58,073 bases of DNA from a phage. The stretch lies in sequence record PZ445420.1, one strand, 5' to 3'. The notes under the pieces were generated by a model. The model worked only from the letters and a program-made list of their open reading frames with translations. It was not told the origin of the DNA and did no database searches. Made by a program: the position numbers and the translations under genes. This document shows, one piece after another, positions 7,929 through 34,566 of this stretch. Each line of letters begins with the position of its first letter. Within the stretch, counting starts at the first letter, position 1.

Positions 7929-8392
7929 TCCCGTATCCGTTTCATTGGGTCGAAGATACCCTGAAATCACACTTAGTGAATAACTATGCTGAAATGTCAC
8001 ACGCTATGGCGTGGAAGAACTTGACATTTGATGCCAGCGGCTTTAAAGTGTGGTTAAAGATTATCAATACCCCATCCAGTGAAGACCCTGTAACGTTAGG
8101 CCCTTATGGCGATAATGAAATGCGTGGGTTTTTACAGATTGGTATATATTCACAGCTGAATATCGGTATTGAAGAATCTAACGCTGTTCTTGGACATGTG
8201 AGTAAAATCTTTAGTGTACCAAGACAGCTCCAGGCACCGGACGGCTGCATGTTAAGACTGACAAGAAAGACGTTTTCCCAGGGCGGGCAGACGTCAATTG
8301 CAGACTTCACTCGCGGTGGTGTTGAAGGTGTTTGGGATGCTCAATATGTAACAATCTACTGGCTCGCACGTGAGCCTAAACAGAGGATATAA
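7925..8392 (+). CDS. hypothetical tail completion/terminator protein
   Basis: 155-aa ORF immediately upstream of major tail gene. Confidence 0.4.
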   Translation: MIPYPFHWVEDTLKSHLVNNYAEMSHAMAWKNLTFDASGFKVWLKIINTPSSEDPVTLGPYGDNEMRGFLQIGIYSQLNIGIEESNAVLGHVSKIFSVPRQLQAPDGCMLRLTRKTFSQGGQTSIADFTRGGVEGVWDAQYVTIYWLAREPKQRI

Positions 8393-8394
8393 CG

Positions 8395-9573
8395 ATGGCT
8401 GAAGGTTCACGTTATAGTAGCTATTACATCAAAGAACAGACCTCCGGTGTCACTCCGTCTAGCGGAACTCTGAAGGTCTTTCGTGCTACTAAATCGGGTC
8501 TTGATATTAAAGTCGCTACTCTGCAATCTGAAGAAATTCGAGATGACGCGGAAGTGGCGGATTTCCGTCTTGGTGCTCGTCACGTAGAAGGTACAGCAAC
8601 GGGTGAACTGTCTTATGAGACATTTGATGACCTGTTGGGTGGTGCGTTACGTGGTACGTTTGCGGGTGAAGTGCTAACCGCAGGCATCGAGCGCCAATCC
8701 TTTACTTTTATCGACTATAACGCAGATATTACGGACTTCCCATATACCATCTATCGCGGTTGTGAAGTTAACAGTCTTGCAATTACTGTAAGTGCTGAAG
8801 CTATCACCGGCGTGGAATTCGGTATTGTTGGTCGCACAATGGAACAAGCTGCTACCCTGCCGTCTGGTCTAAGTAAAGGTACTCGTACGACTACACCACC
8901 TATGGATGGCTTCTCTGGTAAGCTGGCTATGGGCGATGTATCCGTTGATGTTATTACTGAGATGGCTATTAACCTTGAGAACGGCATCGAGCCTCGCTTT
9001 GTTGTTGGTTCCAAGTTCTCCATTAAGCCAAGCTCTAAACGCCGTCAGATTAGTGGTACACTGACCGCCTACTACGAAGATAACAAACTGCGTAGTAAGT
9101 TCCTGAACGAACAGGAAAGTGACCTGACTATTGACATCCTGGACGGAACTACTGGTGCCGGTTATCGCTTCAGTATGCCTCGTATCAAGATTACGGAAGC
9201 TCCGCGTCCGATCGATGGTGAAGGCGATATTATGCTGAACATGAGCTATACTGGTCTGTTGGATCAGGAAGAAGGTTACAGCATTCGCATTACTAAACTT
9301 CCTCCGATGTCTTTCACGACGGATCTTACCGCAAACAAGACTATCACTAAAGGGCAAACGCTGACCCTTTCTGTTGTGGTTAAAGGTGGTGCAGAACCTT
9401 ATACCTACGTGTGGAAGAAAGGTGGTGTCGTTATTGGAGGTGCTAATCAAGCGACATACACTAAATCTAACGCACAAGAGGTAGATGCTGGTCAGTATGT
9501 ATGTGAAGTAACAGATTCACATGGTCGTACTATACCGAGCACCGCCTGCTTGGTTGCTGTTAACGCTGAGTAA
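8395..9573 (+). CDS. major tail protein with C-terminal Ig-like domain
   Basis: 392-aa ORF upstream of chaperone/tape-measure genes; C-terminal segment (LTLSVVVKGGAEPYTYVWKKGG...GQYVCEVTD) looks like an Ig-like domain; followed by terminator. Confidence 0.6.
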   Translation: MAEGSRYSSYYIKEQTSGVTPSSGTLKVFRATKSGLDIKVATLQSEEIRDDAEVADFRLGARHVEGTATGELSYETFDDLLGGALRGTFAGEVLTAGIERQSFTFIDYNADITDFPYTIYRGCEVNSLAITVSAEAITGVEFGIVGRTMEQAATLPSGLSKGTRTTTPPMDGFSGKLAMGDVSVDVITEMAINLENGIEPRFVVGSKFSIKPSSKRRQISGTLTAYYEDNKLRSKFLNEQESDLTIDILDGTTGAGYRFSMPRIKITEAPRPIDGEGDIMLNMSYTGLLDQEEGYSIRITKLPPMSFTTDLTANKTITKGQTLTLSVVVKGGAEPYTYVWKKGGVVIGGANQATYTKSNAQEVDAGQYVCEVTDSHGRTIPSTACLVAVNAE

Positions 9574-20970: not shown

Positions 20971-21099
20971 ATTGGCTGTCAACCCTAATTTACAAAATCT
21001 TTACATATGGATCATTGTAAAGGCCATGTTAAGGGGTATGCTTTATTTCGTAACCAGTTGGTTACATCCGCTTAACAAATCCATATGGAGATTTTCCCT

Positions 21100-21219
21100 A
21101 TGTCTGACATGACTCTTATTCCGAGCGGTTTAGGTGGCGGTTTCGGTGGTGAAGCTGGTGCAGCGGACGTTGGCGGTGGTATCTGTGGCTTAATTGGATA
21201 TCCTGAAATCTGCTTTTAA
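21100..21219 (+). CDS. small Gly-rich Cys-containing peptide (39 aa)
   Basis: ATG with TGGAG upstream; MSDMTLIPSGLGGGFGGEAGAADVGGGICGLIGYPEICF. Confidence 0.25.
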   Translation: MSDMTLIPSGLGGGFGGEAGAADVGGGICGLIGYPEICF

Positions 21220-21379
21220 TGATTTTAAATCCATGGGCTCATTATCTTGTATCATGTCTGTAATGAGTTCAGGTAAACTAACTCAGCAACAAGTTGATAT
21301 TGCACAACGCATTGCTGTAAAGGTCTTAGCTGTGCTAGGCATCCAAGAATCAAATAAAAAACAAGAAAAAGAAGAATAA
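21194..21379 (+). CDS. small hypothetical protein (61 aa), overlaps the Gly-rich peptide ORF in another frame
   Basis: ORF track; hydrophobic centre and Lys/Glu-rich C-terminus; real start may be 21231. Confidence 0.25.
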   Translation: MDILKSAFNDFKSMGSLSCIMSVMSSGKLTQQQVDIAQRIAVKVLAVLGIQESNKKQEKEE

Positions 21380-21449
21380 GCAGAGGCAACGTACGGCATT
21401 TTGGGGCATTTTATTGTGGGCCAGTACAAATGTATTGGCCCACATTTTA

Positions 21450-23423
21450 TTAAGCGGCGTATGCGAGTTTTTCCAGCAATTTTTCCGCTTTAGCTATGTA
21501 CACTTCGTGGTTGAGATCTGGCGGTAACTGGTCAGTGAGTTCCATCATAGGTTTACCCCCTGCTGTCTTACCAACACGACCCCCACTCTTGACTATCAGT
21601 ATTTCAGGTACTTCTTCTTTTGTATAGTACCAGCGAACAACCTTACCTAATGGCTCACTATTCCATGCAGCGCCACCGTTAGCTGTCTTGATACAAACAA
21701 ACTTACGAATGTCCTGACACTCTATGATAGTTTTAGCAATTGGCGTACCGTCACGAAGCAGATTAACAACTGCATCCATAATGATCTCACCTTCTGCGTT
21801 TTTAGCAAGACCTGTCTCTGCGAACCAACCCTTACGTTTGGCTTTACCATCTGCTTTGATTGCGACGTAATTGTTAACGTTTGCAGAGTTAAGACGCAGG
21901 TACTGGTTCAGTTCCATTTCAAAGCCAGTTGTCTCTTCCCACCACTTGATGATATCAGTCATTAATTGCTTCTTAGCTTTGCAAGGTTTAATAACGATAC
22001 CATCCGTATTAGCACTAACGACCTGAATACCATTAAGCTCTAGTGTCTCAATGAGCATAAGTAGAGCTAACTGACCTGTGAGTGTAGTCTGAATAATAAG
22101 GTGCGGTGCATACAGAATAGAGAACGGTGAACCGAACTTACCATAGGAACCGTTGATAACGATCTTAAGAGTTTGTGCGGTCTTATCGTCATGAGCCATC
22201 TTAGCTGCAATACGTCGTTCTACGATCTTAACGAAGATATCTATAAATCGCGGGCCCAGGTGCTCAGGATACAGTTGCTGGTTAATGATACAGATCGGGT
22301 AGTATGACGTTACGTCAGCGTCCCACATCTCTTCATCTTCAGATGGTACAATCTCCATTAACTCTTCGCACGAGTGCAGACCACCGATACCCATGTTGTA
22401 GGTTGTCTGATTGATTGTAAACTTCAAAGAGTTCATTGTAGATGGTTGCTTAATTTTACCATCTTCTGCAACTCTGAAGTAACTGTCGAGCACCACCTGA
22501 AATACAGACTTCATTAGTGGCGTTTGGAAACCTAACCACACTGGAGGATTGTACCTAAAGGTTCTACCGACTTCCACCATCCCTTTCTGTGGTACGAAGC
22601 CCAGCATTTCCTTCATCTCATGACGGATTACAGCTTCTGCAATCTGTGCATCAGATTTAGAGCGAAGATCTACTTTATACTCTTCACTCATAATCTCACG
22701 TAGATGGATCTGTTCTTCCAGCGAGTTAAACAGTGCCATTGTTGTATCGAGGTCGTTAATACAGTAGAAACGCACAATAGCAATCTGTTCCATGGACAGC
22801 GCCCAATGCGGTGGGAACGGTAAGTCCTGGAGCTTCTTCATGTGCATACGGCCACCGTACAGCTTCAGTGAACCGAAGCCAGGAGCTACTTCCTGAACGT
22901 CAATGTGGTCAATCCAAAACTGTTTCACACCAAAACTGTTAAGAATGTCCCACGGAGCCCACTCTTCCTGGATCATCCTGTCACTTGCTTCTTTTAGCTT
23001 GTCGACAGTTAAACCAGCAATGGCAAGGAATGTCATCGTATTATCATAGTTTCTTGAGTTGAAACCAACGGTACGAAAGTTCTTCATTATCCATTCATAT
23101 TTTTCCGTGTCAAGTGTCTGACCGGCAGTCATTTCTAGATAATAAACCTTACCGAACTTAACCCCTTTAAACGCCACAAGAAAATAGTTCTTATAACATT
23201 CGATATCATATACGAATGTTTCTTGTGCAAAATACATCTCCACTAATTCACCGTCTGTCATACGCGGATCGTTAGCTGCAAAACGCATTGCTGCATCAAG
23301 ACCTGGAAGGTAGTCTGGGCGCTCCCATACCCTTTCAACTGGTTGACGTTTTACTTTCTGTTTCTTCTCTTTCTTAGCGGGAGGTAAATCCTCCCAAAAA
23401 AAACCAATAGCATCTTTTCTCAT
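21450..23423 (-). CDS. DNA polymerase, family-B-like with 3'-5' exonuclease motif
   Basis: 657 aa; Exo I-like YDIEC; motif A-like DADVTSYYP; motif B-like KIVINGSYGKFG; motif C variant SANTDG. Confidence 0.6.
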   Translation of the reverse strand: MRKDAIGFFWEDLPPAKKEKKQKVKRQPVERVWERPDYLPGLDAAMRFAANDPRMTDGELVEMYFAQETFVYDIECYKNYFLVAFKGVKFGKVYYLEMTAGQTLDTEKYEWIMKNFRTVGFNSRNYDNTMTFLAIAGLTVDKLKEASDRMIQEEWAPWDILNSFGVKQFWIDHIDVQEVAPGFGSLKLYGGRMHMKKLQDLPFPPHWALSMEQIAIVRFYCINDLDTTMALFNSLEEQIHLREIMSEEYKVDLRSKSDAQIAEAVIRHEMKEMLGFVPQKGMVEVGRTFRYNPPVWLGFQTPLMKSVFQVVLDSYFRVAEDGKIKQPSTMNSLKFTINQTTYNMGIGGLHSCEELMEIVPSEDEEMWDADVTSYYPICIINQQLYPEHLGPRFIDIFVKIVERRIAAKMAHDDKTAQTLKIVINGSYGKFGSPFSILYAPHLIIQTTLTGQLALLMLIETLELNGIQVVSANTDGIVIKPCKAKKQLMTDIIKWWEETTGFEMELNQYLRLNSANVNNYVAIKADGKAKRKGWFAETGLAKNAEGEIIMDAVVNLLRDGTPIAKTIIECQDIRKFVCIKTANGGAAWNSEPLGKVVRWYYTKEEVPEILIVKSGGRVGKTAGGKPMMELTDQLPPDLNHEVYIAKAEKLLEKLAYAA

Positions 23424-24412
23424 AGACGAAATCCTACAATTACCCCACGTAGATTTTCACCATAAAAAATAATAGGAGTTGAAAGACCCCTTTCGTCCTT
23501 TTCATTGAAACGAGAGGCATCCCAGTCCGTTGCAAGTCCTTTCAACTGCATAATAAGATCTATATTATACACGCCAATTGACTTGGATTCACGGAACATT
23601 GCACTAGCACCGTCCAGCTCGTTGTAATGGGTACGCACAACACCATTTTCCATATAAATACGCCCATCGCGTTCACAGAACGGTTTTATTTTCTCTAAGC
23701 AGTTAAAAAGCTCAGTATCAAGCGTATAGACGTTAGACCCCTTTTCTGTACGCTCAATTATCTTGTCAATGTTGGGCCACTTTAATTCCAGCAATTGGGT
23801 ACGCAACCAGCAACCGTCTTCGTAATGAAATGTCATACTGGTATCTGTACATTGAATTCTTACTGGTGGCTTTTTAATGCGCAATAGCTCCTTGATGGCC
23901 ATACGTGGCACAACACAATCTACAGGGAATACAGCGCCGAACCAATACTGTATAATACTAGCGTTGTTGGTCGCGTACATGCTGCCCTGTTTTACCAGCA
24001 CGCCGCAAGACCACGGGCGGGAAGCATCGTCGCTTATAAACGGCGTTACGCGGCTTAAACCGTTGAGAAAAAGCTGACCGTCTATTTCGTGAATTGTTCC
24101 TTCTGGCTCTACGTGTGCAGTTGGTTTCTGAAGAGTATCCACACTGACCTTAAAGCCACCAGACTTAATGCTCAACTTACCGTTCGCTAACATTGTCATC
24201 TGTACAGCTTCGTCACATGCTGCAATAGCCTTGAGCATCGGTTCAGCTTTCGGTGTACAGTCAATGTTCAGTGGTACTGGACTACATAATGAAATAGTTC
24301 CGTTGAACCCGCGCACAGTACCGTCGACAATACGGAAGTGAGTTAAACCTTCCTGGAGTTCTTTCTTAGCTACAGAACCCTGAACAAACTTTAAAGCATC
24401 AAGTAAATCCAT
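23420..24412 (-). CDS. hypothetical protein adjacent to DpdA-like gene
   Basis: 330-aa ORF translationally coupled to polymerase gene; contains SGGF segment; no confident assignment. Confidence 0.4.
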   Translation of the reverse strand: MDLLDALKFVQGSVAKKELQEGLTHFRIVDGTVRGFNGTISLCSPVPLNIDCTPKAEPMLKAIAACDEAVQMTMLANGKLSIKSGGFKVSVDTLQKPTAHVEPEGTIHEIDGQLFLNGLSRVTPFISDDASRPWSCGVLVKQGSMYATNNASIIQYWFGAVFPVDCVVPRMAIKELLRIKKPPVRIQCTDTSMTFHYEDGCWLRTQLLELKWPNIDKIIERTEKGSNVYTLDTELFNCLEKIKPFCERDGRIYMENGVVRTHYNELDGASAMFRESKSIGVYNIDLIMQLKGLATDWDASRFNEKDERGLSTPIIFYGENLRGVIVGFRL

Positions 24413-24420
24413 AAGTAACC

Positions 24421-25374
24421 TTACTCGTCAAATAAATCCTGGAGACGTTCGTTGAACTTCCCATTGTGGTTAGCAAGAATCATAGCGTTGACCACACCAT
24501 ACGCCCATAAATTGTATGCAGCGCGTGATTCGTATATCGTTGAAAGTCGCTCGTATGTGAAACCTGACTCCTCTAAGTAGCGTAGAACGTTATTCTGTTC
24601 TACTTCTGAAAGATTACAGATATGTTGCCCTTGATAGTGACGTGATGGAGACTTTTCGGACACCTGCATTGGACCCCACTTAGGCGTCTCAATAGCACCG
24701 AACGCCGCAGATTGAATCCAGGAGGATGAGTCACAGGAGTACCACGGGTAACGCTCCATAAGTGGGCGGGACGTAATACCAAAGCCATGGACTTTGATCT
24801 TAGCTCGACCACTACCGTCTACAAGGTGTTTATCCCATACCCTGTCTAGCCATACCTGAAGTTGTTGTGTACTCGCTCCAACAAGACCACCGAGAGTGAT
24901 ATATTCATAATTTCGTACATAATGGTCCAGGTATTCAAAAGGTTCACCCGCGTGGAAGCATGGTAAAGGTCTTACACCTCTGGCTTCCATCTCTTCCTGG
25001 TTACGCCATGTTTGAAGTGGATCACCGATACCATCGAGTACGGACGCCATAAGTGAACCATCCTCTACACGAATGATATCTATGTTTCGTTGGATGTAAT
25101 CACAGTATTCTTTAACTGATAACGTAACTCCCAAAGTGTAAGCTGAGAACGCTCCGGAGTCGAGGAATATCTTGGCCCCATCGGCACGCATGGCATCAAC
25201 ATATGATTGCTTTCCAACGTAATGGTAGGACTCAAGAATGTTTGGAATATTCTCGACAACACGTTTTTCTTGTTCGTTGAGTTTGACATAGCGGTTCATT
25301 CCTGGTTTATAGCTGTTCGTATATACGGCAGCCATATAAATCTGAAAGGTATAGTCGATATCTTGTCTGTGCAT
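24421..25374 (-). CDS. dpdA: DpdA-like 7-deazaguanine DNA transglycosylase (TGT-superfamily candidate)
   Basis: 317 aa; FLDSGAFS segment resembles TGT catalytic DSGGFQ region; immediately downstream of folE/queD/queC/queE genes. Confidence 0.45.
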   Translation of the reverse strand: MHRQDIDYTFQIYMAAVYTNSYKPGMNRYVKLNEQEKRVVENIPNILESYHYVGKQSYVDAMRADGAKIFLDSGAFSAYTLGVTLSVKEYCDYIQRNIDIIRVEDGSLMASVLDGIGDPLQTWRNQEEMEARGVRPLPCFHAGEPFEYLDHYVRNYEYITLGGLVGASTQQLQVWLDRVWDKHLVDGSGRAKIKVHGFGITSRPLMERYPWYSCDSSSWIQSAAFGAIETPKWGPMQVSEKSPSRHYQGQHICNLSEVEQNNVLRYLEESGFTYERLSTIYESRAAYNLWAYGVVNAMILANHNGKFNERLQDLFDE

Positions 25375-25443
25375 TGTTCACCTAACAAATAAGCGCCCGT
25401 AGGCGCTTATTATATTAAAGATAATGTATGATTCGCAAATCAG

Positions 25444-26079
25444 TTACTTTTTACACGCTTCAAGAAATTCCCGACGCCATGTGTCACCAGTTACATCAGG
25501 TAATACACAATCGCCCAATGCAGTACGCCCACGGAATGCTTTAGTAACGGTTGAGCTTCCACACACTTGTTTAACACCGCGCGACTCCATGCACATATGT
25601 TTTGCATCGATGTAAACACATACAGCTTTCGGGTCTAAGTGTTCTACGATAGCATCCGCAATCTGGTTAGTCAGACGCTCCTGAACTTGCAAACGACGGC
25701 TAAAAGCATCAACCACGCGAGACAGTTTACTAAGACCCACGATGCGACCGTTAGGAACATACCCCACGACAGCGTGACCGATAATAGGAGCCATATGATG
25801 CTCACAATGGCTATAAACTGGAATATCGCGAACGATAACCATTTCATCGCAGTTTTCCCCACCATCTTCAAATGTCTTGAACAGAGATGCAATATCAGTA
25901 TTGTAACCACCGAACCACGTCTCAAATGCTTTAGCAACACGTTCAGGTGTTTCTTCTAACCCTGGACGAAGAGGACCAAAATCATTTTCTTCAATCTGAC
26001 GAAGGATATTTTCAATGTGTTGCGCAATAACAAATTTATTCATGGTTTGCAGTTTCCTTGTGTGGTCAATTATTTGCAA
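25444..26079 (-). CDS. folE: GTP cyclohydrolase I
   Basis: 211 aa with VYSHCEHHMAP and GLSKLSRVVD motifs typical of FolE. Confidence 0.8.
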   Translation of the reverse strand: MQIIDHTRKLQTMNKFVIAQHIENILRQIEENDFGPLRPGLEETPERVAKAFETWFGGYNTDIASLFKTFEDGGENCDEMVIVRDIPVYSHCEHHMAPIIGHAVVGYVPNGRIVGLSKLSRVVDAFSRRLQVQERLTNQIADAIVEHLDPKAVCVYIDAKHMCMESRGVKQVCGSSTVTKAFRGRTALGDCVLPDVTGDTWRREFLEACKK

Positions 26080-26582
26080 TAGTTAACATGGCATTTGGAC
26101 GTTTCTTCAATGGTGCATTCTACAAGTTGAACACCATGTTCGTCAAGCAGTTGCGGACCAATTACGTTTACCATGTATGCAGCCAGGTTTTCCGCGGTTG
26201 GGTTGAATGGTAAAGCTACCAATGAGCCTAAGAAATGCTCATGGTCTTCATGTTCCAGAGGACAACTCGGGCGACTTGCTGCAATTTTCAAAGCGTCAAT
26301 CAAATTATCACGACTCCAATGCAGGAATTTATGATCCCAGTTATCTTCCAACCACTGGCAAAGCGTAGTTTTAACCACACTAAAGTCGATAACGCGACCT
26401 ACGTCGTCCAGTTGCTTAAGGGCCGCAAATTCAGCTTCGTCCATGACTTTATAAGGGACTTTTGGCGCAACCTTAAAGTGAAACTTATAGTTGTGCCCGT
26501 GCAGGTGGCGGCACTTACTCTCATGCCCAACTACACGGTGGCCAGCGCAAATTTCATGCGAACGGATTACTTCGTAGCTCAT
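26070..26582 (-). CDS. queD: 6-carboxy-5,6,7,8-tetrahydropterin synthase (QueD/PTPS family)
   Basis: 170 aa; CAGHRVVGHESKCRHLHGHNY zinc/catalytic motif typical of QueD. Confidence 0.75.
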   Translation of the reverse strand: MSYEVIRSHEICAGHRVVGHESKCRHLHGHNYKFHFKVAPKVPYKVMDEAEFAALKQLDDVGRVIDFSVVKTTLCQWLEDNWDHKFLHWSRDNLIDALKIAASRPSCPLEHEDHEHFLGSLVALPFNPTAENLAAYMVNVIGPQLLDEHGVQLVECTIEETSKCHVNYCK

Positions 26583-26827
26583 TCTGCCACCTCATAAGTC
26601 TGGGCAAAAATATCAGGTTTACACGGGTAATGCTCACCATTTACTCCTCGTATAATCCAGTCACCATTGGACGCTGTCATGACCCCTTCTAGAGTATTAA
26701 TTAATAAATTGTCGCCCATAACATGACAATCCCGCGACCCACTATTACAGAAATCGTATACTTCCTGCGTATTCAATCCAGTCCATTGAACAGCTTCAAT
26801 CACGACCGGCTTTTTACGGAATCTCAT
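26579..26827 (-). CDS. hypothetical protein
   Basis: 82-aa ORF coupled within deazaguanine cluster. Confidence 0.4.
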   Translation of the reverse strand: MRFRKKPVVIEAVQWTGLNTQEVYDFCNSGSRDCHVMGDNLLINTLEGVMTASNGDWIIRGVNGEHYPCKPDIFAQTYEVAE

Positions 26828-27228
26828 TGGGATTTCTCCACTTCAATAGCTGCTTTAATATCACGCAGTGCGCGAATTTCATGGTGCAGATAACCAGTAT
26901 CTTCTTCCACGTTTTCCGCAGCAACGCGCTCCAGGATAGTGATCAACGAATCAACGTGCGTTGACATCATATCCGCAAGGTTGGGATGACCTTTATAAAT
27001 GTCGTTCCCACTAATGCGATTATACAACGCAGCGGACGCTGATTGGTACTCCGGCCAGTCGTTAGCAATAAAAATCCCTTCGGTGACACCGCGCCCTTCA
27101 GCAACCCGCCCAAGGACAACGATGTCAGTCAGGTCTTCAATAGTCTCACGCTGGTCACGAGTGAGGTACTTTTTGACGTCATCGTTCTTAAGAACTAAGT
27201 AACGATGCTCGAAGCGTTTATCCTTCAT
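26824..27228 (-). CDS. hypothetical protein (134 aa from internal ATG of ORF 26824..27288)
   Basis: Start chosen to minimise overlap with upstream gene. Confidence 0.4.
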   Translation of the reverse strand: MKDKRFEHRYLVLKNDDVKKYLTRDQRETIEDLTDIVVLGRVAEGRGVTEGIFIANDWPEYQSASAALYNRISGNDIYKGHPNLADMMSTHVDSLITILERVAAENVEEDTGYLHHEIRALRDIKAAIEVEKSQ

Positions 27229-27487
27229 TTTCTTTCTCCATAAATTCACGGTATTTACGAACGCACTCGTCTTTACTACGGGACGCAAAACAGCGCCAAC
27301 CGTTGTCCAGCTTGTACGACCAGTAGAACGCGCCGAAACGTTTCTTCATCCGCTTAGTTACACAGACGCTCTGTTTCAGCATTGGGTTTTGAGACTTGAT
27401 AAAGGCAGCACGTTCAGCGGCAGGTAACATCTCATAGGCTTCCTTCTGCATACTGGCGTACACCGTTTCACGGAAATTCATCTTCAT
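27218..27487 (-). CDS. hypothetical protein
   Basis: 89-aa ORF inside deazaguanine cluster. Confidence 0.4.
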   Translation of the reverse strand: MKMNFRETVYASMQKEAYEMLPAAERAAFIKSQNPMLKQSVCVTKRMKKRFGAFYWSYKLDNGWRCFASRSKDECVRKYREFMEKENEG

Positions 27488-27521: not shown

Positions 27522-28937
27522 TTACTGTTCATCCAGATAGGTAATTACCTCTGGCGCACCATTAATACTAAATGCAGTCCGGCGCATCATGCAAGGGCCA
27601 CAAGTACCGCAATGCAAATCCCCGTTACGGTAACAGCTCCAGGTGTGCTCCAACGGGGCCCCTAAACGCAGACCTGTAGCGACAATTTCGTGCTTCATTA
27701 AGTTACCTACTGGCATAAGCACTTCAACGCGCTTACCGTCGCCTACAGCGAACGGTAACACTTGATTAAAGCGATTAATGAACTCAGGCTCATTGTCGGG
27801 GTAGGCTCCAGCTTCTTCTAGGTTGTTACCAAGAACAATATAGTCGAAACCGTTAGCTTCTGCGTATGCAGTAGCAACAGAAAGCATCACAAGGTTACGA
27901 GCTGGAACCCATTCATGCGCGAACTCAGCGCCTTCTTCACCGCCAGCAATTGTAGCATCTTGATCAAATAATGGGCTATCTTTCTTATCGTAGATCGGAA
28001 TTGGAAATTCAATTAATGGAACCCCCATCACCTCCGCAATCTTACGAATAGCGTACAGCTCATTAGTTTCTGCACGACAACCATATTGGAAGTTAATCAG
28101 AGTAACATCTAGACCATTGGACTTACATATCTGAGCTGCTACTGTGCTGTCCATACCACCACTGGCGACAACTAACGCACGTTGAGTCTGCTTATTTGGA
28201 ATAAGATCAACTTCATTGCATACATCAGTCGATGTGACCACATTACACGAATAAGGCTTCAGCATCTGCTTAATAGCACGGGTTGGTAGCATGTCTTCCT
28301 GGCTGGCGAAATACATACCAGTATCAGTCTTACCAATCCAGATTGGACGGTAATTACATGCTGCAAACACATACCCAGGAAGTGAATCGTGCGTTGCAAG
28401 GATTGCGTAACTTCCTTTCAACTTGCGAATAACTTCATGAAATACGTTATAAAGGTAATCTGAATCAGACAGACACGTTTCATCCGCTGAAAGTGTGCAT
28501 TCCGCTAACTGTTCAACAATCGCAGCACTATCAATTTTAGTCTGTAGTGCATAGGTACGAAGGTCTTTATCGTTCGCAATAGTACCGTTATGAACAATAG
28601 TCCAACCATCCATATGATACGGTTGCTGGTCCCACTCGTTCTTGTCAACGACCCACTCTGTAGTCGGTTCAGCACGAGCGTTACCAATCATTGTGAAGCT
28701 ACCAATAGCTCCAGCATGAGATACAATGCACCCAACTTTGACAGGACGTTCCAGTGATGTTTCCTTACCGACACTAACAATACGTTGCGGGTGCATACTG
28801 TGGTCACCATGCGTAAAGCGTACACCAAGACCATCACGACCACGCTTGATACTAGCTTTAATAAGATCACCAACATCGTTACGGATAATTTCACGTTCAG
28901 GTTGGCCATTAGTAATAACACCAAAGATGGAGCACAT
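27522..28937 (-). CDS. queC: glutamine amidotransferase (class II) fused to QueC-like 7-cyano-7-deazaguanine synthase (Gat-QueC)
   Basis: N-terminus MCSIFGV (Ntn class-II GATase, as in AsnB); C-terminal PP-loop SGGMDS and Cys cluster C...CGTCGPC typical of QueC. Confidence 0.75.
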   Translation of the reverse strand: MCSIFGVITNGQPEREIIRNDVGDLIKASIKRGRDGLGVRFTHGDHSMHPQRIVSVGKETSLERPVKVGCIVSHAGAIGSFTMIGNARAEPTTEWVVDKNEWDQQPYHMDGWTIVHNGTIANDKDLRTYALQTKIDSAAIVEQLAECTLSADETCLSDSDYLYNVFHEVIRKLKGSYAILATHDSLPGYVFAACNYRPIWIGKTDTGMYFASQEDMLPTRAIKQMLKPYSCNVVTSTDVCNEVDLIPNKQTQRALVVASGGMDSTVAAQICKSNGLDVTLINFQYGCRAETNELYAIRKIAEVMGVPLIEFPIPIYDKKDSPLFDQDATIAGGEEGAEFAHEWVPARNLVMLSVATAYAEANGFDYIVLGNNLEEAGAYPDNEPEFINRFNQVLPFAVGDGKRVEVLMPVGNLMKHEIVATGLRLGAPLEHTWSCYRNGDLHCGTCGPCMMRRTAFSINGAPEVITYLDEQ

Positions 28938-28938
28938 A

Positions 28939-29697
28939 TTATTTACCTTCTTTAACCATTTCAATTTCACGCTCAACGGATGCAATAATATCGTTGAGGT
29001 CTTCCAGTAAGTCTTTATGACCGCGCTCACCCGCACACAGCACTTTCTTCAGTGCATGTTGCATGGGCCCACTGGTTACATTGAATGCTTTAATTACGTC
29101 GTACACGTCAACCCACACATCAATTTCAATCGGGCTACCGTTAATGTCATGTGATTCAAAACTTTTGATTTTGCGCATATATTTATTCGGACGTGGAGCT
29201 TTAATATCCTGGATGCAATCCTTATTAACAAACGCTTCATTAACGAATAGTTCCGGCTCGCCTTCTTTGTCACGATCAACTTTAAAGACGCTCGCAAGTA
29301 CATCTTCCATGATACCAGCTAATTTTTCAGAAGAAGTTTTATGATTTTTAACCACCTCTTCCACTTCTTCCGCTTTCTGTGTCCCGCTAACAGAAGGACT
29401 AATGCGCCATTTGTAAAGCGCATTACGCGGAGGCGTTACATGCGTGTTGTAGACTGTCTTTAAGTTCATAAGATCATTTCCATCCATACCTTCAACAAAG
29501 ACAGTGAGTGCGGGACTGCTATCGTTCAGAACATCTACTAAATATCCTTCTCGAATTACAGATGCAAGAGCTGCATGGGACGCCGCTTGAGAAACTGTGG
29601 TCACATAATGTTTTACAAATCCGTCTTCATCAAACAGACACTGGTTTAACACATTTTCTGGAACAATTTGACCGAGTAATTGAATATGCTTATTCAT
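28939..29697 (-). CDS. hypothetical protein (252 aa) between queE and gat-queC
   Basis: ORF with stop adjacent to gat-queC start; no recognisable catalytic motif. Confidence 0.45.
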   Translation of the reverse strand: MNKHIQLLGQIVPENVLNQCLFDEDGFVKHYVTTVSQAASHAALASVIREGYLVDVLNDSSPALTVFVEGMDGNDLMNLKTVYNTHVTPPRNALYKWRISPSVSGTQKAEEVEEVVKNHKTSSEKLAGIMEDVLASVFKVDRDKEGEPELFVNEAFVNKDCIQDIKAPRPNKYMRKIKSFESHDINGSPIEIDVWVDVYDVIKAFNVTSGPMQHALKKVLCAGERGHKDLLEDLNDIIASVEREIEMVKEGK

Positions 29698-30898: not shown

Positions 30899-31723
30899 TT
30901 ACTCTGCAGTTTTCTGAGACGGAATTTCTACGTTAGCGGCCGCTTGTGCAATATTAGCAGGTACTGGAACGGATACGCGACCAGTAATGCCCATGTATTT
31001 TTTCCAGCGAGCATATTCCGCTTTAACGTTCGCTTCGTTCAGGCCTTTGTCCAGTGCAACAGGCAGAACGTAGCTGATCGGCGCAGTCTGACCCAGCTCC
31101 AGGGTGACAGCGTCAAAGATATCCCATGCAGCACGGCACAGAGTACCGACACCAGGCTTACGAATACCGTTCTGTTCAGGCTCTTTCTTAGCTTCGCGTT
31201 CTGCTGCTTTACGAGCGCGCTCTTCGTCCTGCAGACGTTTCTTCTCAGCGCGTTGTGCGTCACGTTGCGCTTTTTCAGCGGCCTTAGTGGCTTCGCGGGC
31301 AGCGGATACACGACCTTTAACATCTTTCAGAGTGGATTCAATGGAGGAAACCAGATCTTCAGATGCTGCAACGGCAGTTTTCAGCTGATCGTTGTCTTTA
31401 ACTTTACGTGCTGCCGCTTTAACAGCTTTCAGACCTTCTTTAGCGGTCTTCAGTTGAGCGGTAACTACGCCTTCAACTGCTTTAACTTCGTCCAGCAATG
31501 AACCTTCGTTCAGGGTCGCGAACTGTTCTTTAACAGCGGACACAGCACCTTCGATCACATTGTAACCGGCAGTGGCTTCGTTCAATGCGGCGTCAACTTT
31601 AGCCTGCAATTCACGTGCTGCTTTTTCTTCAGCTTCACGTTTTTTCTTTGCTTCAGCTTCTTTTGCTGCTTTCTTTGCAGCTTCTTCTGCTTCCAGTTGT
31701 TCTGGAGTTTTCTCTTTAGCCAT
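30899..31723 (-). CDS. hypothetical protein with Lys/Ala/Glu-rich low-complexity N-terminal two-thirds and globular C-terminal domain
   Basis: 274-aa ORF; strong compositional bias; opposite-strand ORFs here are artefacts of this bias. Confidence 0.5.
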   Translation of the reverse strand: MAKEKTPEQLEAEEAAKKAAKEAEAKKKREAEEKAARELQAKVDAALNEATAGYNVIEGAVSAVKEQFATLNEGSLLDEVKAVEGVVTAQLKTAKEGLKAVKAAARKVKDNDQLKTAVAASEDLVSSIESTLKDVKGRVSAAREATKAAEKAQRDAQRAEKKRLQDEERARKAAEREAKKEPEQNGIRKPGVGTLCRAAWDIFDAVTLELGQTAPISYVLPVALDKGLNEANVKAEYARWKKYMGITGRVSVPVPANIAQAAANVEIPSQKTAE

Positions 31724-31819: not shown

Positions 31820-32542
31820 TTAATTTAAGCCACGTTCCTTTACCCAGACCCCTAATGTATTACTTGATGTATTACGCTTCACACCTTGTGCCTCTAAACG
31901 ATCCATTATTTGTTTTCTGAGCTGTAGGATTTCCTTCTTGTCACGAGGTTCACCAGCTTCTTTCCACATTTCGTCAGCAACAGCGAAAATAATATCGCGA
32001 GTGCCGGCTGTACGCGACGTTGCGGCACGTTTTTCGCTTGCCAGTGTGCTAGTACCTTGCCGCTCTCTTGTCGGTGTCCATGCCCCTTGTATGCCCATAT
32101 TTGTTTGTACGGTTGGGCCGTCAATGATGGTGGATTCCAATGAACTATCATTCCGTACTTGAATATTAGGCTCCTCCCCCAAATCTGGAACAGAGCTACC
32201 TTCGCGGTACATGCACTCACCCTCTTTATTACTAGCAATTGCCCAGTCCGCTTGTTCAGCCACATCCGCATCTATTACTGTCTCCGGTATTTCATTTAAA
32301 AAGTAATGGATGATCTTACTGATCATTTTCTTTGGATATAAAGCACCTTGCTTATTACCCGTTAAGTTGATGTACAAAAGTTGCATTTGCACATCATCAA
32401 ACTCTTTATGCAGTTCTTCAACTTCTAACGGAAGAACTACAGAACTTTCGCTACAGCATAGAATTCCATACTCGTGAAGACGTTGGAAGTTTGGATGCTT
32501 AGCTAATATCTGCATCCGATCATAATCAATTAAGACGTACAT
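31820..32542 (-). CDS. hypothetical protein
   Basis: 240-aa ORF downstream of helicase gene. Confidence 0.45.
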   Translation of the reverse strand: MYVLIDYDRMQILAKHPNFQRLHEYGILCCSESSVVLPLEVEELHKEFDDVQMQLLYINLTGNKQGALYPKKMISKIIHYFLNEIPETVIDADVAEQADWAIASNKEGECMYREGSSVPDLGEEPNIQVRNDSSLESTIIDGPTVQTNMGIQGAWTPTRERQGTSTLASEKRAATSRTAGTRDIIFAVADEMWKEAGEPRDKKEILQLRKQIMDRLEAQGVKRNTSSNTLGVWVKERGLN

Positions 32543-32562: not shown

Positions 32563-34566
32563 TTAAAACGGTATGTCGTCATCAAAATCTGGTGGTAGTT
32601 CTTTACCGTTACCAGTAAGAATAGGTTGATTAGACGTAGAATGCAATACCGTCGTACGGGAATCAGTCTGCTCATCTTCATCAAACTTATTCGTATAATT
32701 TCCACCAAACTGGGACAGACCATTCATTGCTGCAATTTGTACGACCGGACGTTCGTTTGTTGCTTCTTTCTTACCGAACTCACTACCGTCATAACAACTA
32801 TTCAACACTTCAGGAAACTTACCCTTCAAGTTGACATAAATGTGCGTCGGTACACGAAGCTGACTGACCACATTGAGGGCTTCGTCAATGTTAGCTGGGA
32901 TTGCCAGGCTACAATGTTCGCGCCACCAGTTACGCGCTTTCTTACCTGCAAAACCAGTGTGGAACAGGCAGATGTATTGTTGAATAGTTTGTGAGCCACA
33001 AAGATAATCAACACGAAGTGTTGGTGGTTTAGAACGGTCACCTCTGTTCTCGTGACGATAGTAACTCACCATATCAACTTTCAGCACTTCGGTAACTGGT
33101 AAATCATTCTTGATAATAGCTTTCGTACTTGCACTCGCCATTAGTTTCTTCTCAAAAGTAAACTCATGACCGCAATAACCAGCACGACACGCTTTATTAT
33201 TTGTGATGGTATAACCTAATCCTTGAAGATAGAGTATTTCTTCATGTGACATGCTGCTTGTGTCGAATGGTTTTAACCCACCACAGAAGCGAACTGACGC
33301 ATGGTTCCATGTTTTACATATTGGGCATTCCTTAACAGGTGCAGCGGATTTTCCTTTCTGCCCTGGACGCTTAGGAATGACAGGGTCATTAATAGGACCA
33401 AGACGTCTTGTGTTACCTGCATAATCCAATACAAGACAGTTCTGTTTATGCGAAGCAGAGATAGCTTGCAAACGACCCTCTGTTGTGGTCAAATCAAAAC
33501 CATCTGCATAATCAGGTCGTGTACCACGTCCAAGCATCTGAACCCACAAACGGGAAGATTGAGATGGTCGCATACCAATTATCAAGTCAAGGCCCGGATG
33601 GTCAAAACCTGTCGTCAATACGTTGTTGTTCGCTATTGCCTGCAAACGACCAGCTTTAAAGTCAATAAGATACTGGTCACGCAATGCTTTCGGTGTATCA
33701 CCAGTTACAACTTCGCAACTAATACCGCGATCATTAAGATAGTCTTTTACATCCTTTGCATGGTCCACACCAGCACAAAAGATAAGCCAACTCATCCTAT
33801 TCTCTTCTTCCGCAATACTAATCGCATCATCTAACAAATGACGTGTTACATCAGGGTCGTTTACAACTTTCTGAAGTTCACTTTCAATGAACTCACCGCC
33901 TCGAGTATGAACACCACTTACATCATACTCTTTCTTTGTTTTACGTGGTACTAACGGAACCAGATAACCTTCATCAATAAACCAGTTGAAGCACTCTACG
34001 GTACACGCGTTAAATACGATTTCATCAAATAAAGCGTTAGGCGCATAATCATCTTTGATAATAGAACCAAAACCAAGACGCCAACTTGTAGCAGTAAGAC
34101 CGATAATCTTTAGATATGGATTCTTTTCACGAATGTGCGCAAAGAATTTCTGATAACTTGTTTGTTGATTTGGACTAATAAGGTCACATTCGTCAACTAT
34201 AATAATATCAACGTCCTCAAAGTATTTAGCTTGTTTTGCAACAGACTGAATACCCGCGAACGTTATCATTGCGTTCTTATCTTTGCGGCCCATACCAGCA
34301 CTGTAAATACCAGTCGGTGCTTCAGGCCACAGCTTCTTAAATTTATCGTGGTTCTGGTCTATCAATTCTTTTACGTGAGTAATTACCATCATGCGGGTAC
34401 TACCCCAATTATCGTGAATTGTCTTTAATAGACCAGCAATTACAAGGGACTTACCAGTCCCCGTAGGCAACAAGATAACAGGATTTCCTGACTTTTCACC
34501 ATGCTTGATGAAATAGCGCAATGTACTATTTACAGCTTCTTGCTGATAATCACGTAGTTTGAACAT
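32563..34566 (-). CDS. SF2 DNA helicase (DEAD/DExD-box-like) with C-terminal DFDDDIPF tail
   Basis: 667 aa; Walker A LPTGTGKS, DECD box, LTAT motif III; Cys-rich segment CPICKTWNHASVRFC; last 8 residues DFDDDIPF. Confidence 0.8.
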   Translation of the reverse strand: MFKLRDYQQEAVNSTLRYFIKHGEKSGNPVILLPTGTGKSLVIAGLLKTIHDNWGSTRMMVITHVKELIDQNHDKFKKLWPEAPTGIYSAGMGRKDKNAMITFAGIQSVAKQAKYFEDVDIIIVDECDLISPNQQTSYQKFFAHIREKNPYLKIIGLTATSWRLGFGSIIKDDYAPNALFDEIVFNACTVECFNWFIDEGYLVPLVPRKTKKEYDVSGVHTRGGEFIESELQKVVNDPDVTRHLLDDAISIAEEENRMSWLIFCAGVDHAKDVKDYLNDRGISCEVVTGDTPKALRDQYLIDFKAGRLQAIANNNVLTTGFDHPGLDLIIGMRPSQSSRLWVQMLGRGTRPDYADGFDLTTTEGRLQAISASHKQNCLVLDYAGNTRRLGPINDPVIPKRPGQKGKSAAPVKECPICKTWNHASVRFCGGLKPFDTSSMSHEEILYLQGLGYTITNNKACRAGYCGHEFTFEKKLMASASTKAIIKNDLPVTEVLKVDMVSYYRHENRGDRSKPPTLRVDYLCGSQTIQQYICLFHTGFAGKKARNWWREHCSLAIPANIDEALNVVSQLRVPTHIYVNLKGKFPEVLNSCYDGSEFGKKEATNERPVVQIAAMNGLSQFGGNYTNKFDEDEQTDSRTTVLHSTSNQPILTGNGKELPPDFDDDIPF

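Follow-up and report, generated by a model that had tools for sequence, protein, structure and literature searches.

The sequence record PZ445420.1, 58,073 nucleotides (nt) of phage DNA that were analysed as a whole and are called the window here, carries three consecutive minus-strand genes for a DNA guanine transglycosylase (DpdA1), a 330-amino-acid (aa) protein and a family-B DNA polymerase (Table 1). A preliminary description of this sequence had presented the middle open reading frame (ORF) as an unknown protein, and offered a polymerase accessory factor or a second transglycosylase-like subunit among its possible identities. Our analysis indicates that it is very probably a phage DnaN-type (β) sliding clamp serving the adjacent polymerase. 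The gene layout given in that description was accurate: the clamp gene lies directly downstream of the putative transglycosylase gene, its ATG following the stop codon of the DpdA ORF by 8 nt, and its own stop codon overlaps the polymerase start in an ATGA; an AGGA that resembles a Shine-Dalgarno element stands 8 nt upstream of the polymerase ATG. Positions 21000-26000 share ~94% nucleotide identity with the Nonagvirus phages SE1, JenP1, JenP2, JenK1 and 9g (Queuovirinae), which places the window among the 9g-like members of Nonagvirus. In three relatives, 0.2-0.55 kb of DNA separates the clamp gene from the polymerase gene (L005, Salmonella phage SE1, with a gap at 7993-8547; L012 and L013, with a gap at 7993-8181), so ATGA coupling is not fixed within the genus.

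Table 1. Coordinates of the genes and sequence features discussed, in positions of the window.
Feature	Position	Strand	Basis or remark
Clamp gene, 330 aa (ATG to TGA)	23420..24412	minus	ORF call; PHROG 947
Family-B DNA polymerase, 657 aa, presumed main client of the clamp	21450..23423	minus	PHROG 1252, E 2.4e-228
DpdA1 (DNA guanine transglycosylase), 317 aa	24421..25374	minus	PHROG 887, E 1e-98
Overlap of clamp stop and polymerase start, ATGA	23420-23423	minus	ORF coordinates
Polymerase N-terminal module, residues 1-45	23289..23423	minus	DAIGFFWED, Lys/Pro-rich linker, then W..PDYLPGL
DAIGFFWED, polymerase residues 4-12	23388-23414	minus	candidate clamp-docking peptide, putative binding
SGGF, clamp residues 84-87, hairpin turn of domain I	24152-24163	minus	AlphaFold2 model, coordinates
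DpdA tail LQDLFDE, candidate clamp-binding motif	24424..24444	minus	Q[E/D]LF conservation; putative binding partner
LGGLVG, DpdA residues 161-166	24877-24894	minus	motif coordinates
LDSGAF, DpdA residues 71-76	25147-25164	minus	motif coordinates
C-terminal DFDDDIPF of the superfamily 2 (SF2) helicase (ORF 32563..34566)	32566..32589	minus	resembles E. coli SSB C-terminal tip

The 330-aa protein matches PHROG 947, "DNA polymerase processivity factor", at E 4.6e-82, in an alignment that pairs residues 2-330 with positions 11-365 of the 368 in the profile. A JenP2 protein is 100% identical to it, those of JenK1 and ESCO3 are 98-100% identical, and its equivalents in 9g, JenP1, JenP2, JenK1 and SE1 are annotated as DNA polymerase processivity factor, replicative clamp or DNA polymerase beta subunit. 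RefSeq describes 9g gp02 as "DNA polymerase processivity factor; replicative clamp" and shows it flanked by gp01, the DNA polymerase, on one side and by gp03, a queuine tRNA-ribosyltransferase, on the other, the same gene in the same DpdA-clamp-polymerase order with no material difference from the window; some GenBank records of the same protein still read "hypothetical". The label "unknown protein" is thus superseded, and the clamp identity is already known from the annotation of sister phages, with nothing new in the object itself. A large protein database holds 568 homologues, several of them named by their sources as "DNA polymerase III sliding clamp (beta) subunit", and homologues are present in 320 phage records. 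When a family profile built from 49 of the homologues (alignment A1) was searched against the PDB, seven distinct sequences were returned, all bacterial β clamps (E 5e-6 to 2e-4), followed by an FKBP at a chance-level E of 0.86.

Structure prediction pointed the same way. The AlphaFold2 model from alignment A1 (predicted local distance difference test score, pLDDT, 92.8; predicted template modelling score, pTM, 0.86) shows three repeats of the beta-alpha-beta-beta-beta pattern of clamp domains, and every one of the best 50 matches that Foldseek gave in the PDB is a DnaN clamp (probability 1.00, query-normalised TM-score 0.73-0.82, alignments of ~370-390 columns). The predicted fold is therefore that of a three-domain β-type clamp, the tandem DnaN architecture being contained in one 330-aa chain and shared over its full length with bacterial DnaN (E. 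coli Pol III β; PDB 3q4j, 7azd and 2awa). The preliminary description had set a TIM-barrel tRNA-guanine transglycosylase (TGT) fold against a clamp-like one, and it is the clamp that emerged; among its proposals, the polymerase accessory factor is borne out by profiles, predicted structure and synteny, whereas neither the transglycosylase-like subunit nor the suggestion that either of two ORFs could be the true DpdA stood up.

Sequence comparison adds residue-level likenesses. Aligned to E. coli DnaN with hhalign (88% probability), the family places R132 on R152, ATNN on ATDG(HRL), and W212-P213 on F241-P242 ahead of the linker between domains II and III; the C-terminus reads GFRL against PMRL in E. 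coli, a hydrophobic-R-L ending in both, and the SGGF segment falls on RSGRSRF of the E. coli protein, an SGxxxF hairpin. Residues R132, T148 and W212-P213 are invariant in the family, and its C-terminus keeps the pattern [MF]-R-[LVI]; these are candidate signature positions of a hydrophobic cleft between domains II and III that would take QL[S/D]LF-type client peptides. The phage clamp nevertheless differs from bacterial DnaN in its ~14-18% identity, in its length (330 versus 366 aa), and in being partnered with a family-B polymerase, or in relatives a family-A polymerase, rather than Pol III.

Several observations weigh against the assignment. A Pfam scan of the 330-aa protein gave no DNA_pol3_beta domain at E <= 1, and NCBIfam TIGR00663 (dnaN) matched weakly (E 5.8e-6), at 25.5 bits against a curated cut-off of 137.65, which together mark the protein as a very divergent relative and no equivalog of cellular DnaN. 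Domain III could not be aligned to E. coli β by sequence with hhalign. The replication-module ORFs (PHROGs, Pfam) and the 9g annotation contain no RFC, DnaX or gp44-like protein; a search for a loader among the ATPase-like and uncharacterised ORFs of this module turned up a Sak4-like AAA_24 protein, a primase/DUF3987 protein, an SF2 helicase and three PHROGs without assigned function, and nothing else. The public label is homology-based, and the literature searched yielded no biochemical study of a PHROG 947-type clamp.

Viruses do make processivity rings of another kind. T4 gp45 is a virus-encoded ring for a family-B polymerase, bound through a terminal peptide; gp45 and PCNA have two-domain chains that form trimers, and their AAA+ loaders (gp44/62 and RFC, respectively) are phage-encoded in the case of T4. 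The protein described here would do the same job, but it differs in its three-domain chain, its exclusively DnaN structural matches and the absence of a loader gene, and a two-domain trimeric clamp of the PCNA/gp45 type was ruled out, since none of the best 50 matches was PCNA or gp45.

Gene neighbourhoods tie the protein to polymerases. A polymerase gene adjoins the PHROG 947 clamp gene in 12 annotated phages as well as in the window, and the clamp-then-polymerase order recurs in Ab26, RcSpartan, Siara and six further phages. Single-protein scans with Ab26- and RcSpartan-type clamps gave only close relatives, so annotated phages were used to cover the diversity. Ab26, RcSpartan, Siara, Langgrundblatt1, Pavpe01, AB_SZL7, Kharn and Axy20 have the clamp gene immediately upstream of the polymerase gene, usually with a helicase gene before the pair, and have no DpdA or deazaguanine genes; the retention of the pair in such phages argues that the clamp is a polymerase accessory. 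The closer clade was sampled as 80 IMG/VR loci with clamps 39-100% identical, where DpdA lies upstream of the clamp on the same strand in 78 and a family-B polymerase lies downstream in 74; BcepGomr, RHEph04, Yong-L2-223 and Baskent_P4_1 share the DpdA-clamp-polymerase order.

The polymerase itself carries a candidate docking element. Pfam and NCBIfam match it weakly to PolB/Pol II, and its N-terminal peptide in the window is MRKDAIGFFWEDL. Among 67 distinct polymerases, 65 open with M(x)1-3 R x D[AS][IL]G[LF]FW x D, whose D[AS][IL]G[LF]FW.D part lies 4-6 residues from the start methionine and is followed by a variable Lys/Pro-rich linker and W..PDYLPGL. The two exceptions, from Ab26 and RcSpartan, lack the motif and end in ALSFF and SASLF, and distant Lokivirus/Xanthomonas/Sphingomonas-type polymerases combine an N-terminal MFFDD or MSLFD with SSLFD or VMFF at the very C-terminus or RQDLFDA or RPDLFDD near it, so that every polymerase in the clamp-linked group bears an [LFM]F motif at a terminus. 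These peptides recall the QLGLF of E. coli Pol II, and the clients of DnaN likewise carry short terminal peptides with [LF]F; the bacterial clamp-binding consensus is QL[S/D]LF (PMC11417375). When the termini of all window ORFs were scanned for [LFM]F, the polymerase, DpdA and helicase were the only replication proteins to match, the helicase trivially through its first two residues, MF; the scan also gave several chance hits, among which we count the SLFF end of a tail-chaperone-like ORF and the TFF end of a 65-aa ORF.

The module also outlives its catalytic core. Downstream of the clamp in L058, L074, Yong-L2-223 and Baskent_P4_1, a family-A polymerase (DNA_pol_A, E 1e-59 to 1e-71) replaces PolB, and the family-A enzymes at L058:8393-10438, L074:8650-10698, L087:6392-8389 and L088:6371-8383 keep a module of ~45 aa with the same plan as in the window (MR.DA.G.FWED, a basic linker and W..P.YLP.L). 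Between the window PolB and the L058 PolA, the sole significant similarity covers residues 1-57 (BLASTP E 3e-8). The persistence of the module through an exchange of catalytic cores is most readily explained if it serves to dock a conserved neighbour, the clamp being the obvious candidate and the helicase an alternative.

On the favoured reading, the clamp is made together with the downstream family-B polymerase through the ATGA coupling, and its three-domain chain, like those of its family, would assemble into a head-to-tail dimeric ring around double-stranded DNA. Tethering of the polymerase by its DAIGFFWED peptide, lodged in the client cleft as in related clamps, would then most likely support processive phage DNA synthesis. 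Because the phage encodes no recognisable clamp loader, loading would presumably fall to the host DnaX complex or proceed without a dedicated loader.

A DNA-modifying enzyme is encoded on the other side of the clamp gene. The 24421..25374 product matches the queuine tRNA-ribosyltransferase family PHROG 887 and contains LDSGAF and LGGLVG, which we take to be the TGT-type motifs, a DSG[GA]F substrate loop and GGLxVG. In its AlphaFold2 model the core folds as a TIM barrel, closest in the PDB to the archaeosine tRNA-guanine transglycosylases (ArcTGT) 1iq8 and 1j2b (probability 0.98-0.99, with a weak E of 3e-3); a sequence search of DpdA1 against the PDB gave no meaningful matches. The model is good only at residues 10-215; pLDDT stays below 50 throughout the last third of the chain and its tail, a probable effect of the shallow alignment (71-87% identity). 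DNA-modifying activity of the 9g-type DpdA has been shown in E. coli (PMC6884629). This ORF is the true DpdA, a 9g-type DpdA1, with no ambiguity between it and its neighbour.

The end of DpdA1 resembles the termini of clamp clients. In the window the protein finishes in RLQDLFDE, its C-terminal peptide being NHNGKFNERLQDLFDE, and 70 distinct sequences from clamp loci show Q312 in 76%, then E or D, L314 in 100% and F315 in 97%, after ~12 hypervariable columns with indels; F is the last residue in 60 of the 70. An [QR][ED]L[FY] end with 0 or 2 extra residues recurs in 119 of 120 further metagenomic cluster representatives. By its sequence, then, the DpdA1 C-terminus has the signature of a short linear motif. 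It fits QL[S/D]LF over the three final positions of that consensus, and it is nearly identical to the SSLFD, RQDLFDA and RPDLFDD polymerase C-tails of clamp-encoding phages that have no DpdA. The tail is kept beside PolB and PolA alike, which argues that its partner is not the polymerase core. One locus departs from this pattern: in L117 (Achromobacter phage vB_Ade_ART) five genes separate DpdA from the clamp, the DpdA tail ends in KQMELLG, with LL for LF, and the polymerase keeps MGRFDAIGLFWED; it may be a natural variant with a decaying DpdA tail.

DpdAs that lack a neighbouring clamp offer a comparison. Five with no clamp within a few kilobases (L089-L093: Qyrzula, Typha, phiSM, phiFN37 and Sonali) have unrelated C-termini without Q[E/D]LF, and all five adjoin a ParB-like gene, upstream or downstream, four being so annotated and Qyrzula gene 1 being recognised through relatives. 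A hidden Markov model of the five phage ParB-like proteins, a probe of limited sensitivity, found no ParB/DpdB-like ORF at E <= 1 in the window or the clamp loci. The ParB-like gene and the clamp, as two possible DpdA partners, thus show a complementary distribution. Bacterial DpdA requires DpdB, a ParB-like ATPase modelled as encircling DNA (PMC10164549), and DpdA1 phages replace 0.1-30% of G, against <0.1% for bacterial DpdA (bDpdA) and DpdA2 (PMC10516641).

These observations suggest a tentative extension of the clamp reading, one that we consider possible though somewhat more apt to be wrong than right, in which the clamp would also tether DpdA1 by its Q[E/D]LF tail. The exchange of guanine for 7-deazaguanine would then follow the new duplex behind the fork, with the clamp in the role of the ParB-like DpdB, a proposal that we hold just as loosely. 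It draws on the conserved single-strand order of the three genes, on the conservation and terminal position of the tail behind an indel-rich linker, on its likeness to known and candidate clamp-binding peptides, on its indifference to the type of polymerase nearby, on the tail-less DpdAs beside ParB-like genes, on the dependence of bacterial DpdA on an accessory protein, and on the greater G replacement in DpdA1 phages.

Against a second client stands the finding that 9g DpdA and Gat-QueC modify 9-18% of plasmid G in E. coli with the phage clamp absent, though the host β clamp is present (PMC6884629); the phage clamp is therefore not required for the chemistry, and the tail at most aids targeting or uses the host β clamp too. 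The correlation between the tail and the clamp comes from one clade only, DpdA1, and so counts as one evolutionary event. The motif is QxLF and not QLxLF, and its strictly terminal position recalls the acidic-Phe tails of the SSB type (SSB, a protein that binds single-stranded DNA), which have other partners. Adjacency of the genes may reflect no more than a shared early/replication operon, and the DpdA model is poorly defined past residue 216, so the freedom of the tail is not visible in it. The parallel with DpdB, which applies only if DpdA is a client, is likewise partial: DpdB is a proposed DNA-encircling accessory that DpdA needs (PMC10164549), and ParB-like genes flank the sampled phage DpdAs that have no clamp beside them, but a ParB/NTPase and a passive β clamp are unrelated in fold and energy requirement, and 9g DpdA works without the phage clamp. 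The open-access DpdA literature that was consulted makes no mention of a clamp or processivity factor.

A further motif bears on how the clamp might be loaded. The helicase ends in ELPPDFDDDIPF and the E. coli SSB tail in EPPMDFDDDIPF, with 11 of the last 12 residues identical. The same DDIPF ending is found on the Siara helicase, on the Ab26- and RcSpartan-type clamps themselves (387-409 aa), and on small ORFs, one just downstream of the helicase gene of Yong-L2-223 and one between helicase and clamp in Kharn. One partner of the SSB tip is the clamp-loader subunit chi. Many proteins are known to dock on this tip (PMC5872125), which makes recruitment of the host loader by an SSB-like tip on helicase or clamp plausible, if speculative. 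By analogy, the helicase tail could instead couple helicase to polymerase, as in T7, or bind the phage Sak4; in HK620, the cognate SSB stimulates Sak4 (PMC5928155). The fuller scheme, in which the clamp of DpdA1-type phages (Queuovirinae and relatives) is a shared landing pad for the polymerase, docked by its portable G[LF]FW module, and for DpdA1, docked by its Q[E/D]LF tail, so that hypermodification is tied to the replication fork, and in which the clamp replaces the ParB-like DpdB and is loaded by the host through SSB-tail mimics such as DFDDDIPF on helicase or clamp, is one that these motifs may hint at but that we regard as unlikely when taken whole.

Other functions for a protein with the clamp fold fare worse. 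It might act as a decoy that sequesters clamp-binding proteins of the host or diverts its Pol III or clamp loader, or as an open, self-loading factor like herpesvirus UL42/UL44, and the lack of a phage clamp loader, the pocket signature residues partly shared with E. coli β, and the DDIPF tail of the Ab26- and RcSpartan-type clamps, which suggests contact with host SSB-interacting proteins, would all fit; we nonetheless consider this very improbable, given the tight and deep synteny with the phage polymerase, often with translational coupling, the [LF]F motifs at polymerase termini that accompany the clamp whichever polymerase family is present, and a full three-domain architecture typical of ring-forming β clamps.

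The TGT loop reads DSGGFQ, with an Asp ahead of SGGF, and the preliminary description had likened the SGGF of the 330-aa protein to such an active-site loop. The tetrapeptide is indeed present, but the resemblance is coincidental: in the model it forms the turn between strands 80-84 and 87-91, the residue before it is Lys (KSGGF), and the family conserves S84, G85 and F87 but admits G, K, A or S at position 86, so that only SGxF is retained. An SGGF arises by chance in ~0.5% of shuffles of the 330-aa protein, a figure to be read with the tetrapeptide having been picked after the sequence was read. The idea that the 330-aa ORF encodes either the real DpdA or a further transglycosylase-like subunit, for which only this tetrapeptide and the position beside dpdA speak, has a vanishingly small probability and is already refuted by the predicted all-beta/alpha clamp fold with no TIM barrel, in agreement with the lack of any TGT or DpdA family match in Pfam, PHROGs or NCBIfam, the presence of the real motifs and the PHROG 887 match in the upstream ORF, and the homologues that adjoin polymerases in phages without deazaguanine genes.

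For this locus, the clamp assignment removes the "unknown" label and settles which gene is DpdA. Three new leads come with it: the conserved tail of DpdA1, an N-terminal module that does not depend on the type of polymerase, and the SSB-tail mimics. The first of them bears on the gap between DpdA1, with up to ~30% G replacement, and the ATPase-dependent bacterial DpdA, with <0.1% (PMC10516641, PMC10164549): if true, a clamp-docking tail on DpdA1 would be a simple mechanism for efficient replication-coupled modification. The module found across two unrelated polymerase families, together with the SSB-tail mimics, would give a compact system in which to study the assembly of a phage replisome from short linear motifs and host parts. 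Collectively, the three leads suggest a motif-wired replisome that may include a DNA-hypermodifying enzyme.

The surrounding deazaguanine and replication modules yielded several minor observations. Three small minus-strand ORFs (82, 154 and 89 aa) at 26579-27487, between QueD and Gat-QueC, have no counterpart in 9g, where QueD (gp05) is followed directly by gp06. SE1 and JenP1 differ from the window by insertions in the QueD/Gat-QueC region, their matches falling in 3-4 pieces that span 7.1-7.7 kb per 5-kb query. Conserved proteins of 240-274 aa are encoded at 31820-32542, 30899-31723 and 28939-29697 (all minus strand), in or beside the two modules; their only matches, PHROGs 7864, 11298 and 18443, have no assigned function, Pfam gave no match, and one of the three proteins is loosely described as "similar to ATPases" in the 9g annotation. 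Finally, the Gat-QueC ORF at 27522-29036 (minus strand) is listed with a GTG start that gives 504 aa, whereas 9g gp06 has 471 aa; an internal start yields MCSIFGV.., with the N-terminal Cys typical of class-II glutamine amidotransferases, so the true start is probably the ATG at listed residue 34.

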